Positions 17,745 through 28,257 of a stretch of 64,000 nt of DNA are shown piece after piece. Origin of the DNA: a virus; IMG/VR virus record IMGVR_UViG_3300009130_000016, positions 1 to 64,000 of that record, one strand, 5' to 3'. Position numbers and translations under genes: made by a program. The notes under the pieces are model-generated. The model was not told the DNA's origin, did not search any database, and saw only the letters and a list, made by a program, of their open reading frames with translations. Positions within the stretch are counted from its first letter, which is position 1; every line of letters starts with the position of its first letter.

Positions 17745-17815
17745 TATGTGGTAGGTTTTTTCATTTAGAGTGTTTTTAGAAAAAACCCAATATTTATTAG
17801 TAAAACAATAAAGCA

Positions 17816-23857: not shown

Positions 23858-24427
23858 ATGTCAAACCACAAAGACTTATATGGGTCTCAAAGACCAGATG
23901 AAGCAGAAAAGAATTTATCAGAAAACAAAGGTATCGATCTTTTTTTCGGAGACCTAGAAGCCTCTTTTTTTGACCAAGTAGGTAAAGAGATGACAATCAA
24001 TATCTTAAAAGAGAGTTTTATCCTTTATAGAGTTGATTTGAACAAGACTTCTTCTCATGCTTTATACGGGGAATCCATTCAAAAAGAATATAGAGATCCA
24101 GTTGAAGTTTTTGGAAGAATAAATGTCGAGGTTGATGATCCGACAATGAGGACCAAAAATGGTATAACCAAACAAGGTATGGGTCAACTTACAGCCAGCT
24201 TACATCTTTCTCACTTAGAGGAAATTGGAATACTGGAAATGGATGAAAATGATCCTGTAATCGATATGAAGAAAGGTGACTTTATCGGATATAAAGGCCA
24301 GTTCTATGAAGTGTGGGATGATGGTTATGCACAAATTGCTAACCAATTCTCTTATGCAGGAGATAGAAGAGCTTTCTTAAGAGTTCGTGCAAAAGAAGTT
24401 GATAGAGACGTATTTAACGGAATATAA
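23858..24427 (+). CDS. head closure/neck protein (gp14-like)
   Basis: Follows the gp13-like gene; LYGES and KGDFI..KGQFYEV pattern. Confidence 0.65.
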   Translation: MSNHKDLYGSQRPDEAEKNLSENKGIDLFFGDLEASFFDQVGKEMTINILKESFILYRVDLNKTSSHALYGESIQKEYRDPVEVFGRINVEVDDPTMRTKNGITKQGMGQLTASLHLSHLEEIGILEMDENDPVIDMKKGDFIGYKGQFYEVWDDGYAQIANQFSYAGDRRAFLRVRAKEVDRDVFNGI

Positions 24428-24588
24428 ATAGAAAAGATGACTCTTAGGTCATCTTGTTTTGTATAAACTTTTCTCTTCGAAATACCATAAAACTCTGTAT
24501 AGAATATACTTAGAAGGTAATAGTGCAATTGTGAATATTTTAAAAACAACAACATAACTAATAATTGCGTTTTCTGTGTATTGGGTTT

Positions 24589-24843
24589 TTACAATTCCCT
24601 TTGTGATCCAACATTCCCTTTAATACTTTTTATAAAAGACTTAAATCTTGTCTTCAGTTTTCTCTCGTGAATAGCAACTCGATAGGCACCATTCATTTGC
24701 TTCACAAGTAAATCGGCAAACTTATTTCTTTCGACTTGACTCATGTCACTACAATAAATTCTAATCATTGTTTTGAATCCACGGTGCATTTTATCACTTA
24801 GCATTCTGTTTACTATCTTGTCACTAACTTTGAGGTTATCCAT
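24589..24843 (-). CDS. hypothetical protein
   Basis: Member of the tightly packed minus-strand small-gene cluster. Confidence 0.55.
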   Translation of the reverse strand: MDNLKVSDKIVNRMLSDKMHRGFKTMIRIYCSDMSQVERNKFADLLVKQMNGAYRVAIHERKLKTRFKSFIKSIKGNVGSQREL

Positions 24844-24890
24844 ATGATCTAATTATTGTTTCAATAGTTCTAACGAGAAAACTACTCAGT

Positions 24891-25223
24891 TTATTCCTCA
24901 CCTAAAGCTCTTTTTACAGCTTTTCTTGCTTTATCTACGTTGAAGTCTAGTAACTGCCCTTTTTCATCATAGGTATTAAGAAGATCAGTTAAAGCCTCTA
25001 GCATATCTGGAGCAGATTGAATAAGCTTTGCATTTGCCTGTCTTTCTCGAACAGTAACAGTTTCACACATAGATTCATAATTTCCAGTTTCATCATCAGG
25101 GTCATTTGAATTCATTGCACAAACTGTGGCATATCCAGAGCCAGCAAAAACGTAATGAGATTTCTTTCCCTCACTTGTACAACAGGCTTCCCAAGGCCCT
25201 TTCGTTCCTCCAAAATCTTTCAT
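24891..25223 (-). CDS. hypothetical phage protein (TKGPW...ANAKLI..APDMLEAL family)
   Basis: Common early phage protein motif pattern. Confidence 0.7.
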   Translation of the reverse strand: MKDFGGTKGPWEACCTSEGKKSHYVFAGSGYATVCAMNSNDPDDETGNYESMCETVTVRERQANAKLIQSAPDMLEALTDLLNTYDEKGQLLDFNVDKARKAVKRALGEE

Positions 25224-25501
25224 TTTTTCACAATTTCTAATTTACAGTTGACTCCACATCCTTGACAAAATGGATGTGAGACACCTTTTGAATGTGCTAT
25301 TCCGTATGCGTAACCAACATGTCCACATGCACCGCATTTACAAAACTCTCCACTTCGTATAACTTCTTCGCCTTTCTTACTAACGATTTTATGAGCATCG
25401 TGATTGAAGATTGACATAATATAATTTAAGACGAAAGTTCCTCTAAAAAACTCAATGAGCTTCTTAATCTTCGTGTCCAAGATATTTTTCAAACCTTTCA
25501 A
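25220..25501 (-). CDS. small Zn-ribbon protein
   Basis: CGAC...CQGC. Confidence 0.55.
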   Translation of the reverse strand: MKGLKNILDTKIKKLIEFFRGTFVLNYIMSIFNHDAHKIVSKKGEEVIRSGEFCKCGACGHVGYAYGIAHSKGVSHPFCQGCGVNCKLEIVKK

Positions 25502-25685
25502 TTAAAGTGCTAAATGCCTGTGCTTTATTAACCTTCTCTTTCATCGCAAAAAAAGTGGTTTCATCATCTTTTTTCATTTGCTCGATGTGATTAAGAAGAA
25601 TGTCTCTCTCTTTCTTAACTATCGCCAGGCACTCACCGTTATTCAGTGATAGTCCTAAGTCACTTATTGTTTTGTGTGCATCCAT
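25464..25685 (-). CDS. hypothetical protein
   Basis: Packed ORF in the small-gene cluster. Confidence 0.55.
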   Translation of the reverse strand: MDAHKTISDLGLSLNNGECLAIVKKERDILLNHIEQMKKDDETTFFAMKEKVNKAQAFSTLIERFEKYLGHED

Positions 25686-25707
25686 ATTACTTTAGATTTT
25701 TTATAAA

Positions 25708-25884
25708 CTAAAATCCTAACCACTCTTTAAACTCTTTGTCATTATTGACAGTTTCTTTAAAAAACTTTTTACGTTCTTTCTTGAACTTCTTGTAACAGCT
25801 TTTGTGAAAAGCATCTCCATCAGGAGACGTTATTTTGTGAGGCTTACTTTCGTCAATCTTTTTTTTACAGTAAAAACATTTCAT
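25708..25884 (-). CDS. small CxxC...HxxC Zn-finger protein (58 aa)
   Basis: Below track cutoff: MKCFYCKKKIDESKPHKITSPDGDAFHKSCYKKF...; overlaps the upstream stop (ATGA). Confidence 0.6.
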   Translation of the reverse strand: MKCFYCKKKIDESKPHKITSPDGDAFHKSCYKKFKKERKKFFKETVNNDKEFKEWLGF

Positions 25885-26090
25885 ACAAATTCTTCAAATG
25901 TAACCATTTCTTCATTAGTGTCAGTAAGACAACTTGTGAATTTACTTTTCGGGTACTTGGAATCAAGGCGATCCCATTCCATATTCTTCCCTTTCTTGTT
26001 GAAATGACTAACGTCTACAACAGCAACAGATTTCCCCCTATTATAAGGTGTTTCCCTTACTATTATGTAACTAAATTTGTATTTCGCCAT
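25881..26090 (-). CDS. hypothetical protein
   Basis: First gene after the ECF-like promoter at 26112-26137. Confidence 0.6.
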   Translation of the reverse strand: MAKYKFSYIIVRETPYNRGKSVAVVDVSHFNKKGKNMEWDRLDSKYPKSKFTSCLTDTNEEMVTFEEFV

Positions 26091-26111
26091 ATTAAATCTT
26101 TTTTATAAATG

Positions 26112-26137
26112 TAACGAGTTTTGTCGTAATTAAGTTC
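26112..26137 (-). promoter_or_regulatory. ECF-sigma-like promoter GAAC-N17-CGTTA
   Basis: Same motif and spacing at 40060, 50511, 52281 (plus) and 26721-26748 (minus, N18). Confidence 0.6.
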
Positions 26138-26392
26138 TATCTAAATTGAAATTTTCTGACCAATACTACAATTCTTGCTTAAGCCTATGTTTGATCAAGG
26201 TTTCATTTCTGTACTTCTTATAGGTTCTAAACTCATGTTCCTGCCTTTATCATGGTTGTAAGGTGGAATTTTCCACAATACTCACATTTGTAGCCTCTCA
26301 TCATACACTTTTTGTAATCCTTTTTGACACCAGATGCGTTGATCTCCTTTTCAGTTTTAAATGTAGTTTTTACAAATTACCTTTCCAGCCAT
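26130..26392 (-). pseudogene. possible degraded small CxxC-HLT protein gene
   Basis: Fragments MAGKVICK / TTFKTEKE...RGYKCEYCGKFHLTTM / RQEHEFRTYKKYRNE...EL*YW lie in shifting frames. Confidence 0.35.
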
Positions 26393-26619
26393 TTCTTGAA
26401 TATTTTGCCTAAAATAGGCAGACAAACATAAGACATTAATAAAACTAGAGCAGTTGTCACAATAAGCTCCTTGAGTACATAACCAACTCCGAGTGATATT
26501 AGTGTCTCACTCAAATACGGAAGAACAGTGAACACTAGGGGTACAATAGACACCCAAACAAGAATTGTTGTCTTCCATATTTTTGGTTGTTGATTATCCA
26601 TATTAAAAATCAGAAACAA
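26377..26619 (-). CDS. small two-helix membrane protein
   Basis: Two hydrophobic stretches; PKIWKTTILVW...KKWL. Confidence 0.65.
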   Translation of the reverse strand: MFLIFNMDNQQPKIWKTTILVWVSIVPLVFTVLPYLSETLISLGVGYVLKELIVTTALVLLMSYVCLPILGKIFKKWLER

Positions 26620-26759
26620 GATTGTTAAATAAACAAGTTTTTAAAACTCTATTCCTATTTAATATTTTTTTCAATTTATTCATATACTTTTTGTTTTAAG
26701 AATTTATCATTCTGAGGTTATAACGAATTTTTAAGAATCAAATGTTTCATTATTTATTT

Positions 26760-27017
26760 TTAACTCTTAGGGATGATCTTAGAACCCTTATTATATATTA
26801 TACTATATAATATTCTGTTTTTAGGGTAAACGGTAATAAATCAACCCCCTCCCCTTACCCCAGTTAATAAAAACTGAAGCCCTCTAAAAAGAGGAAAAAG
26901 AAAAGAAAATAGGTAATTTATTACCGAGTAAAGAGTGTAATTCATTCTCCCTCCAGTGCCAAACAGTCCGTTGTCAAAATTACAACCCCTAGAAGAAAAG
27001 ACATTGCGGACCTAAAA
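26760..27017 (-). ncRNA. candidate structured non-coding RNA or origin-primer RNA
   Basis: ORF-free; TTTG-N21-TATATTTG promoter at 27056-27024; nested inverted repeats with an extension that pairs only via G-U on the minus strand. Confidence 0.5.
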
Positions 27018-27023
27018 CCAAGG

Positions 27024-27056
27024 CAAATATAAGAAACAAAAAACCCATTTTCCAAA
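27024..27056 (-). promoter_or_regulatory. Bacteroidota sigma-A type promoter (-33 TTTG, -7 TAnnTTTG)
   Basis: Minus strand TTTG at 27056-27053, 21-nt spacer, TATATTTG at 27031-27024. Confidence 0.7.
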
Positions 27057-27088
27057 TAAACTTAGATATTTATTTTAAAAAGAGTCTT

Positions 27089-27832
27089 ATGGGAACTATA
27101 AAAAATCAATCAGATGGTTTAGATAAAAGCTTCGAAAACCACAACTACTTGCCACAAAAGCTACTTTTGGAAGATATTGACATGGGACTTTTTAATTATA
27201 TAAAAAGTCAAGGAATTTCTATGACCAATGAAAAAAAAGAGAATAGAAGAGTTCCAGTAATTTGGGCAACTCAAGAACTTTGGGCTGAAAGAAAGCAAAA
27301 CTTTCAATTCATGGAAAATGAAAATGGCGAAGAAATCGGAAGGCCATTTATTGCAATTTATAAAACAGGTGTAAGCGAAGGTACATCACCATTGAAATAT
27401 AGCATTCCAGCTTTTAATAGATCGACTTTATCTGCAGGAGTTCATAAATTTAAATATGTAAAAGTGCCTGTTTTTGATGGAACGCTAAAGGGTTATACAC
27501 TTTGGAAAGTTCCGCAGCCAGTTTACGTAGATGTTGACTATGAAATGATATTCGAAACAAGGTATCAAACACAAGTTAACCAGTTCATTGAAATGCTTAA
27601 CATTGAGGCGTTTCCGTCTAGACAAGGTTACATGAGAGTGAATGGATATAGCATTCCTTCTATGATGGAGAATCCTAGTGAAACTAGTACGTTTGGAGAC
27701 ATAAGTTCAGAGCAAATTTTTCAAATAACAGTACCATTAAAGGTATACGGAAAATTGGTTGATCCAAGTAAGTTTGAGGAAGTTCAAACAATAAATAAAA
27801 TTTCAATTAACATTTGTGAGAAAAAGGATTAG
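27089..27832 (+). CDS. tail terminator/sheath stabilizer (T4 gp15-like)
   Basis: VPVIW..QE.W, P.YVDVDYE pattern; upstream of the sheath; late promoter at 27067. Confidence 0.65.
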   Translation: MGTIKNQSDGLDKSFENHNYLPQKLLLEDIDMGLFNYIKSQGISMTNEKKENRRVPVIWATQELWAERKQNFQFMENENGEEIGRPFIAIYKTGVSEGTSPLKYSIPAFNRSTLSAGVHKFKYVKVPVFDGTLKGYTLWKVPQPVYVDVDYEMIFETRYQTQVNQFIEMLNIEAFPSRQGYMRVNGYSIPSMMENPSETSTFGDISSEQIFQITVPLKVYGKLVDPSKFEEVQTINKISINICEKKD

Positions 27833-27873
27833 TTTTCAAAAAATTTATCTATTTATTAGAAAACAAGCAAGAA

Positions 27874-28257
27874 ATGAAGATAAAGAATAACAGAAACAAC
27901 TTTGTTGTATTGCAAATAAAAGATGGAAGTAGAAAGATGATCCAAAAGTTTAATCCTTTGGAAGTTATCGAAATACCTTATTTATTTGACATGAAGCAAG
28001 TTGCTAATAAATTTCTTTTTAGTATTGGGAATTTATCTGTTGTAAAATCAAATGATGTTGCTTTAGAAAAAAAGGAATCAAAGACAAAAAAAACGACTGC
28101 AAAGAAAACTACTTCTAAGAAGAAAGTTGCTAAAAAGTCAAAAGTTGAGAAGGCTATTGAGAAAGCGGATGATTTTATGAATGGAGACGTTGAAGAGTCA
28201 GAAAAAGTTCAAAAAGCTAAATCAAACAAAAACAAAACAAAAAAAGAGGAAAAGTAA
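27874..28257 (+). CDS. lysine-rich late protein
   Basis: KTKKTTAKKTTSKKKVAKK tail; late promoter at 27850. Confidence 0.6.
   Translation: MKIKNNRNNFVVLQIKDGSRKMIQKFNPLEVIEIPYLFDMKQVANKFLFSIGNLSVVKSNDVALEKKESKTKKTTAKKTTSKKKVAKKSKVEKAIEKADDFMNGDVEESEKVQKAKSNKNKTKKEEK

Follow-up and report, generated by a model that had tools for sequence, protein, structure and literature searches.

Evidence for a conserved structured RNA gene behind a Bacteroidota-type promoter in the structural gene block of uncultured, mostly very large phages

The pRNA of phage phi29 is a phage-encoded, structured non-coding RNA that is made from an early host-type promoter and occurs once per genome. GOLLD and ROOL are large orphan RNAs of unknown function that are often associated with phages, while 6S RNA folds into a rod whose central bubble imitates an open promoter. 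Branched non-coding RNAs of 200–300 nt with many covarying helices are rare, and most of those whose function has been worked out are enzymes, ribonucleoprotein cores or key regulators. Here, we analyse a stretch of 64,000 nt (the window), positions 1 to 64,000 of IMG/VR virus record IMGVR_UViG_3300009130_000016, an 82.9-kb viral contig fragment estimated to be 29% complete. An earlier note, made from the sequence alone, had proposed a promoter-driven, strand-specific structured RNA at positions 26760–27056. Comparison with related phage loci leads us to conclude with high confidence that the region holds a genuine conserved structured RNA gene on the minus strand. We favour, at a probability of roughly 0.55, the reading that its product is a stand-alone folded RNA, made by the host polymerase and acting in trans, a reading of which the conservation, the covariation, the strand and the promoter motif are the demonstrated parts.

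Relatives' loci were gathered by alignment of the 247-aa protein encoded immediately to the right of the region by a presumed tail gene (plus strand, 27089–27832). This gave 61 viral and 39 metagenome loci, 100 in all, whose proteins are 40–57% identical to that of the window; several of these loci lie on contigs of 290–519 kb, and three contigs are rated complete. The protein has 177 homologues in the metagenome protein collection. Homologues at 68–93% identity exist as proteins (P0001–P0006), and the metagenome scan for loci yielded relatives of at most 54% identity. The window's variant of the fold was compared with distant loci only, the nearest being L002 (57% protein identity), with which the window forms a divergent branch. 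In 30 of the 59 viral loci, a plus-strand gene of 179–196 aa is followed by 287–588 nt without any 60-aa open reading frame (ORF), 5' of the tail gene, and the G+C content of this gap is near that of the locus and not lower. The relatives' gaps align with one another over 350–420 nt at 67–85% identity. Eight of the 31 gaps aligned have no ATG-initiated ORF of at least 20 aa on either strand, and the ORFs of the remaining gaps share no common peptide; as no small ORF is conserved across the gaps, the RNA gap is not considered protein-coding. A peptide starting from a conserved AUGGUAG was considered and rejected, the ORFs that start there being unrelated, by eye, and 6–50 codons long. Hidden Markov models (HMMs) of the conserved 5' and 3' ends were built from 17 gaps and searched with nhmmer (E <= 1e-3). 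They matched the element in 58 of the 100 loci, with both ends in 48, always on the strand opposite to the tail gene, and 42 distinct full-length RNAs of 190–313 nt were obtained from these matches. The next gene downstream of the RNA is convergent in 30 of the 59 viral loci, and the RNA is therefore generally not a leader.

The promoter that the earlier note had called is conserved in the relatives' gaps. In the window, it consists of a -33 element TTTG (27053–27056, minus strand) and a -7 element TATATTTG (27024–27031, minus strand), and the Bacteroidota-type pattern TTTG-N21-TATATTTG at 27024–27056(-) is the sole full match in the 64 kb. One match against 2.36 expected is within chance, 89 of 100 shuffles having at least one, and the weight given to the promoter therefore comes from its conservation in relatives and not from the window pattern alone. 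In the RNA sense, 26 of the 31 gaps carry an exact TANNTTTG at the aligned place, 28 have TTG 18–21 nt upstream of the -7 box, and 23 have both elements. The -33/-7 consensus is that of the Bacteroidota housekeeping sigma factor, in whose box the G sits at -5, according to passages of PMC6847099. By that rule, the window's transcript is predicted to start near 27019, close to the 27017 put forward in the earlier note. A promoter of this host type points to Bacteroidota as the hosts.

The 5' domain of the family is built around hairpin P1, whose loop L1 of 22–24 nt comprises a nearly invariant U-run, the motif GGGG(C)GUUG and a second U-run, and which is followed by the junction UUUURCACUGG. 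On 39 sequences, the eight main pairs of P1 are formed in 87% of cells, and all eight show changes on both sides. Its covariation score is 0.70, compared with 0.29 in shuffles (0 of 500 reach it) and 0.14–0.30 with slid partners, and the helix was also recovered independently by RNAalifold. A global RNAalifold run on all 42 RNAs recovered P1 and one 4-bp helix only, because the middle of the RNA is not alignable across subgroups. In a column-pair scan, G-U matches of G runs with U runs overwhelmed the result, and a MAFFT alignment of the 3' domain misaligned the 5' strands of several subgroups.

In the 3' domain, a pyrimidine-rich strand pairs with two G runs some 70–130 nt further downstream, forming helix P3. 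The G strand was located by pattern in 39 of the 42 RNAs, the three missed having interrupted G runs. RNAduplex found an upstream partner for it in 39 of 39, mostly pyrimidine-rich, with duplex energies between -6.7 and -37.7 kcal/mol. Changes in the spacer that separates the G runs are matched by changes in its partner, as in AUAAUA/UAUUAU, ACUACA/UGUAGU and UAA/UUA. For the 18 long-form RNAs, the RNAalifold structure consists of 12 helices that comprise 73 pairs; 95.0% of cells are paired, and 34 pairs are changed on both sides, compared with 17.9 in shuffles. Its covariation score of 0.352 is reached by none of 500 shuffles (0.190) and compares with 0.06–0.12 for slid partners. Pairs changed on both sides are spread over P3 (9 of 11), two inner hairpins (5 of 5 and 6 of 7), an internal stem (3 of 5) and P1 (5 of 8), and the helix closing the 5' and 3' ends is paired in 90% of cells in these relatives. 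A covariation test on regions upstream of homologous tail genes, which the earlier note had named beforehand, was thus positive. The long-form structure contains 186 G-U cells and 15 A-C cells, and no more than 82% of cells would pair if the opposite strand were read. With the promoter, this count places the RNA on the minus strand of the window, the strand on which the earlier note had put it. In relatives, the stretch that separates the RNA from the convergent upstream gene contains an A/T-rich hairpin. By eye, short direct repeats occur in the A/T-rich spacer before the convergent gene, within the 60–100 nt past the conserved 3' end of the RNA, in three loci: L023 has three copies of a 9-mer, L034 two copies of a 24-mer and L018 two to three copies of a 10-mer.

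One G-rich module occurs twice in the RNA, as the L1 motif and as the 3' strand of P3. Over 24 distinct pairs, the two copies agree at 8.79 of 12 positions within the same RNA, compared with 7.93 for shuffled partners, a value that 0 of 5000 shuffles reach. Separate examples in which both copies have changed together come from L007, from L045 and from the window with L002. Either the twin modules share a partner, or both have to match one complementary strand. Competition between the loop and the 3' strand for one partner, as in a switch or a folding guide, gave no specific signal and is neither supported nor excluded: the loop-partner duplex has -10.48 kcal/mol with its own partner and -10.27 with shuffled ones, and 606 of 3000 shuffles are as good. 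A search for targets in trans, using the motif complement AACGCCCC in three partial relatives (23–31% of each genome), found none; the complement occurs twice inside the RNA gene and at one or two other places, which are coding-like and have no common context.

The loop motif was also used to survey where the element occurs. In the whole viral collection, it was found in 38 contigs, of which 20 carry the element beside the tail gene and 18 are not the element, so the element appears to occur once per genome and in a single place. Among the at least 120 matches listed from 185,579 prokaryote genomes, none is the element, and two weak partial HMM matches among them cover little beyond the pattern by which they were selected. 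The window's own C-rich 17-mer, searched in viral contigs, returned two matches, both in unrelated G+C-rich contigs, which were taken as chance.

In the window, a covariance model of the 5' domain (R1; 82 positions, 39 relatives, the window left out) has its top match over both strands of the 64 kb at 26943–27023(-), full length, with 23.7 bits and E 0.006. The match covers the leader, P1, L1 and the junction, which reads UGUUUGGCACUGG (26953–26965). From this match and the sequence, P1 pairs 27007–27011 with 26966–26970 and 27000–27002 with 26973–26975, enclosing an L1 of 24 nt (26976–26999) that carries the G-rich motif. The repeats and stems listed in the earlier note are all found in the sequence where it had placed them. 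One of them, TGTAATT (26936–26942) with AATTACA (26978–26984), takes up bases within the conserved loop of P1 and has no comparative support beyond a possible parallel in L002, seen by eye.

The 3' domain of the window's copy is dominated by a long hairpin at 26831–26926(-), which is its form of P3, as judged from the fold and from the covariation of the corresponding helix in relatives. It is closed by a perfect 11-bp repeat, CGGTAATAAAT at 26831–26841 with its exact complement at 26916–26926, and within it the 5' strand is pyrimidine-rich and the 3' strand G-rich. The latter corresponds to the C-rich plus-strand run at 26845–26861 and is the second copy of the L1 motif, according to nhmmer and the co-variation in the family. 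P3 encloses two inner hairpins (26861–26894), CCTCT (26881–26885) with AGAGG (26890–26894) and CAGTT (26861–26865) with AACTG (26872–26876), identified from sequence and fold; relatives have variable hairpins at this place, which covary within the long subgroup. At 26880–26895(-), UCCUCU...AGAGGG followed by a U-rich run is the sole terminator-like site that a consensus scan detected in 26300–27200. If it were used, an extra RNA of ~140 nt without the G-rich strand would result. The 3' tail (26817–26830) has a conserved CCCUAA (26821–26826), which aligns with the relatives' UUUUCCCUAA. Beyond it, the minimum free energy fold has a stem of ACCCT (26784–26788) and AGGGT (26823–26827) around an all-A/U palindrome (26790–26813), and this segment, 26784–26827, is likely the 3' end or terminator region. 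Further out, ACTCTT (26763–26768), AAGAGU in the RNA, is a candidate partner of AAGAGT (26931–26936) that would close the 3' domain. The pairing is missing from the minimum free energy fold, and it may stand in for the family's 3' closing partner in the window.

Folding on both strands, which the earlier note had suggested as a check, brings out the hairpin and leaves the strand undecided. On the minus strand, the 108 nt around 26831–26926 have a folding energy of -38.1 kcal/mol (z -6.10), which none of 200 shuffles equals; on the plus strand, the energy is -22.9 kcal/mol (z -4.52). For the whole 261 nt, the values are -70.7 kcal/mol (z -2.92) and -54.0 kcal/mol (z -3.75), respectively. Since the plus-strand z is no worse than that of the minus strand over the 261 nt, folding energy alone does not decide the strand.

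The RNA matches no catalogued RNA family, as the earlier note had suspected. At gathering scores, Rfam 15 (4227 families) gives no match in the window and none in 20 relatives' loci. At E <= 10, the window region has chance-level microRNA and snoRNA matches only (best E 0.45), and at E <= 1 there is no match in six relatives' loci. ARAGORN reports no gene for a tRNA or tmRNA, either in the window or in 50 loci of relatives. The literature searched, together with word searches of the main text of PMC10690425 and of 2026 preprints, contains no description of the RNA. PMC10690425 offers 8495 candidate structured RNAs from IMG/VR intergenic regions, with models of 29–151 nt; the words tail, sheath, jumbo and Bacteroid are all absent from its main text, and a fragment of the RNA may already be among its candidates.

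The gap that houses the RNA, as read from the sequence, is 26620–27088 (469 nt) and contains the whole of 26760–27056. The program-made ORF list has no ORF of at least 60 aa there, in keeping with the ORF-free region of the earlier note, and the sole ORFs are two on the minus strand, of 34 and 37 aa. To the left lies a block of small minus-strand ORFs that ends at 26619. To the right, the 247-aa gene is followed by a 127-aa gene and by the tail sheath gene (28271–30652), identified by a match to PHROG 23 (E 3e-68). The label 'gp15-like', which the earlier note gave to the 247-aa gene, reflects position only; the protein has no Pfam or PHROGs match, and its sole match among GenBank phages is a hypothetical protein of Microcystis phage Mel-JY01, at 24% identity. 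The gap has no DNA similarity to GenBank phages, against which the DNA gave one 200-nt match, in the sheath gene, to a Pelagibacter phage; over its full length, the sheath is at most 32% identical to those of an uncultured 484-kb phage and of Mel-JY01. No cultured relative was found among GenBank phages with the gap DNA, the sheath or the 247-aa protein.

The tail gene seems to be read from a promoter of its own. Across the 31 aligned gaps, conservation of CTATTTAT is 80% or more at a place ~15–25 nt before the tail-gene ATG, and this box is probably the late promoter of the clade. In the window, the late-promoter-like box GATATTTATT (27065–27074, plus strand) lies outside the RNA, 15 nt 5' of the ATG, and the tail-gene late promoter and the RNA promoter are thus arranged back to back. 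Elsewhere in the window, strings similar to CTATTTAT stand before further plus-strand genes (repeat family D16, at 17789 and 18542).

On the far side of the RNA, the window differs from most relatives, in which the 189-aa-type gene and the RNA gene adjoin each other. The window's 189-aa protein (23858–24427), possibly the product of a neck gene to judge by position alone, is 49% identical to the product of the neighbouring gene in L019. Between this gene and the RNA gene lie eight small minus-strand ORFs of 58–110 aa (24352–26619, ~2.2 kb). One of them matches PHROG 1273, of unknown function, and there is no Pfam match among the ORFs scanned. Because the 189-aa protein matches the relatives' neighbour, the window shares the relatives' arrangement with ~2.2 kb of minus-strand ORFs inserted; the block has the look of an insertion made downstream of the promoter of the RNA. 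By eye, the first of these small ORFs has its own late-promoter-like box ~28 nt 5' of its ATG. A different addition is seen in L013 and L061, where a 314-aa plus-strand ORF (2031–2975) without Pfam match stands between the RNA gene and the tail gene, and the RNA lies ~1 kb further upstream of the tail gene than elsewhere.

The reading of a stand-alone RNA acting in trans fits these data best because of the covarying helices, the conserved unpaired nucleotides, the host-type promoter and the lack of a gene that the RNA would serve. The RNA gene would span from ~27019 to ~26810, possibly to 26760, on the minus strand of the window, as a member of a putative family of 190–313 nt that sits between the genes of 189 aa and 247 aa (the tail gene) in a clade of myophages that are uncultured and for the most part very large. 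Its transcription from TTG-N20-TANNTTTG would be carried out by the host's RNA polymerase, with the housekeeping sigma factor of Bacteroidota. In the predicted fold, P1 would display L1, the UUUURCACUGG junction would come next, P3 would enclose the variable hairpins, and the tail with UUUUCCCUAA would complete the molecule. Such an RNA would probably be early and stable. It might serve in trans as a protein scaffold or decoy, or as an enzyme-like RNA, with the two co-evolving G-rich modules as its presumed recognition surfaces.

Several observations weigh against this picture. In the window, unlike in most relatives, eight same-strand ORFs (24352–26619) lie downstream of the RNA, and there the RNA might have a leader role for the ORFs from 26619 on. 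The window is a divergent member: its 3' HMM match (26817–26863, minus strand) is weak (nhmmer E 0.064), so that P3 is seen there by folding and sequence likeness in the 3' domain is slight beyond CCCUAA, and the family's 3' CUGGUAG is absent from its copy in the alignment. The long-form structure was derived from the same alignment on which its pairs were counted, which inflates the contrast with the slid controls (0.352 against 0.06–0.12), and the sequences are related, so the shuffles (0.190) overstate significance. These numbers are flattering, yet compensatory changes are numerous and of more than one type. No RNA run is listed as containing positions 26300–27900, and no contig from three seawater metatranscriptomes of the same study matched at 80% likeness; these results are silent on expression. 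Finally, 42 of the 100 loci were unmatched by the end HMMs.

These unmatched loci are of several sorts: some are cut short, some have diverged sequence behind the same promoter, and three (L047, L048 and L049, near-identical) carry a protein gene. In the latter, no RNA was found; a minus-strand 227-aa gene (2197–2880 of the locus) runs on the RNA's strand, and a promoter-like CTTG-N19-TAAGATTG stands at the equivalent place. The 227-aa protein matches HTH_24 with 22.6 bits, which passes the Pfam cut-off, and HTH_Crp_2 with E 1.6e-5, below its cut-off. Because these three loci carry a helix-turn-helix protein gene behind a promoter-like sequence there, the position of the RNA seems to be a slot for early, perhaps regulatory, functions. 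The diverged gaps (L004, L010, L014 and L016; L040, L044, L046 and L050; L053 and L058; L017) keep the -7 box, except in L040, and several of them retain a G-rich run and CCCUAA near the 3' end. None of them is recognised by the end HMMs, nor are L010 and L040, the sole two of these gaps on whose records R1 was run, recognised by that model; they look like RNA subfamilies with a different 5' domain. Among five large records searched with R1, only G005 (L061) gave a significant match, at the expected place (E 6.4e-6), the diverged subgroups of G001–G004 going unrecognised.

Among the alternatives, the RNA could be the pre-primer of a replication origin, like ColE1 RNA II or the R-loop origins of T4. 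Its G-rich loop and G-rich 3' segment would then form a persistent hybrid with the C-rich template, and the processed hybrid would prime DNA synthesis in A/T-rich DNA just downstream. We consider this unlikely. It has in its favour that a conserved promoter reads into conserved G runs of the non-template strand, and that the loop motif, being nearly identical to the G-rich segment further downstream and co-varying with it, could pair with the template of that segment. According to a passage of PMC4412123, ColE1 cannot form its persistent hybrid unless the RNA has an rG stretch and the template a dC stretch. An upstream promoter and an rG stretch opposite a dC stretch are likewise present in the sequence here, several relatives have A/T-rich and partly repeated DNA past the RNA (by eye), and most have no downstream gene that the RNA would serve. 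Yet the compensatory changes keep the G-rich strand paired within the RNA, whereas a segment that hybridises to DNA need not be so paired, and at least six further covarying helices have no evident role in priming. The RNA also lies inside a co-oriented block of structural genes, and the apparent switch of gene orientation in the window is the local 2.2-kb insertion only. The minimum of the cumulative GC skew, moreover, falls at a gene-orientation switch 19.3, 21.6 and 17.2 kb from the RNA in three complete relatives and near 8 kb in the window, ~19 kb from the RNA. Turning points 17–22 kb away weaken the case for an origin at the RNA; since skew follows the direction of transcription in these genomes, it is a weak witness either way. 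The minima themselves, at ~8000 in the window, ~179 kb in G001, ~209 kb in G004 and ~111 kb in G002, each coincide with an orientation switch, and their distance from the RNA locus is nearly constant (17–22 kb) in all genomes examined. They are candidates for a real origin region or merely for the point at which transcription diverges.

A role in cis is about equally improbable in our view, be it as a structured 5' leader or as a transcription unit that opposes the late operon, acting as an insulator or by promoter interference. The eight small ORFs downstream in the window would suit it, as would a same-strand 156-aa ORF after the RNA in L022, the promoter-like sequence before the helix-turn-helix protein gene in the three loci where no RNA was found, and the position of the RNA promoter right beside the tail gene's late promoter. 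The convergent downstream gene of the 30 relatives makes the window an exception, however, and its first small ORF has a late-promoter-like box of its own; besides, transcription alone would not select compensatory changes in 34 pairs. That the locus has no function at all, being a chance palindrome and a chance promoter-like string in an A/T-rich spacer, is very improbable. The promoter pattern is indeed expected 2.36 times in the window, and the plus strand also folds better than its shuffles, but position, promoter and fold are conserved in dozens of phages in which the flanking protein is only ~50% identical, and a model built from relatives finds the window's copy, so that the comparative data contradict chance.

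Returning to an RNA that acts in trans, a more specific and tentative proposal makes it an RNA enzyme, or else the RNA component of a ribonucleoprotein machine, common to a clade of huge Bacteroidota-infecting phages. Early synthesis by the host polymerase would supply the molecule, its twin G-rich modules might grip one partner twice, and it could be needed for host takeover or for joining head and tail. Whatever its role, the RNA keeps to a single site, within the module that is best conserved in a widespread clade of uncultured phages of very large size, and the internal duplication of a G-rich module whose copies co-vary is an unusual feature. The RNA opens the early programme of huge phages to testing, is a candidate for structural and biochemical study and provides a sequence marker of the clade.

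Compared with described systems, the RNA shares traits with several. The candidates of PMC10690425, as its main text describes them, have the same source (IMG/VR) and the same kind of evidence (covariation), and are shorter, at 29–151 nt, than the 190–313 nt of the family here. With 6S RNA it has in common that both are non-coding RNAs made by the host polymerase, and it could serve a switch of the transcription programme; its consensus is branched, however, with 12 helices, and Rfam gives no 6S match. A 6S-like mimic of the promoter was considered and set aside, the TANNTTTG-like string in a loop being confined, by eye, to the long subgroup. With GOLLD and ROOL it shares a multi-helix fold, many covarying pairs and residence in phage genomes, whereas the family here is smaller (190–313 nt), has a fixed position in the structural module and a host promoter, and shows no similarity in Rfam. 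Like ColE1 RNA II, the R-loop primers of T4 and mitochondrial OriH, it is a promoter-driven folded RNA of a few hundred nucleotides with G runs opposite a C-rich template and without a downstream gene to serve. It has no sequence or Rfam relation to them, its locus is 17–22 kb from the turning point of GC skew, and its G-rich strand is held, according to covariation, in an RNA-RNA helix. The pRNA of phi29 differs in that its gene lies by the packaging genes, while the gene here lies between presumed neck and tail genes, and in its hosts, which are of the Bacteroidota type here; the RNA has no Rfam match to it. Both are nevertheless phage-encoded, structured and non-coding, with a host-type promoter and a single copy per genome. 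Should the RNA indeed be a ribonucleoprotein subunit or an enzyme, it would represent a new functional class of phage RNA, with the standing of phi29 pRNA.

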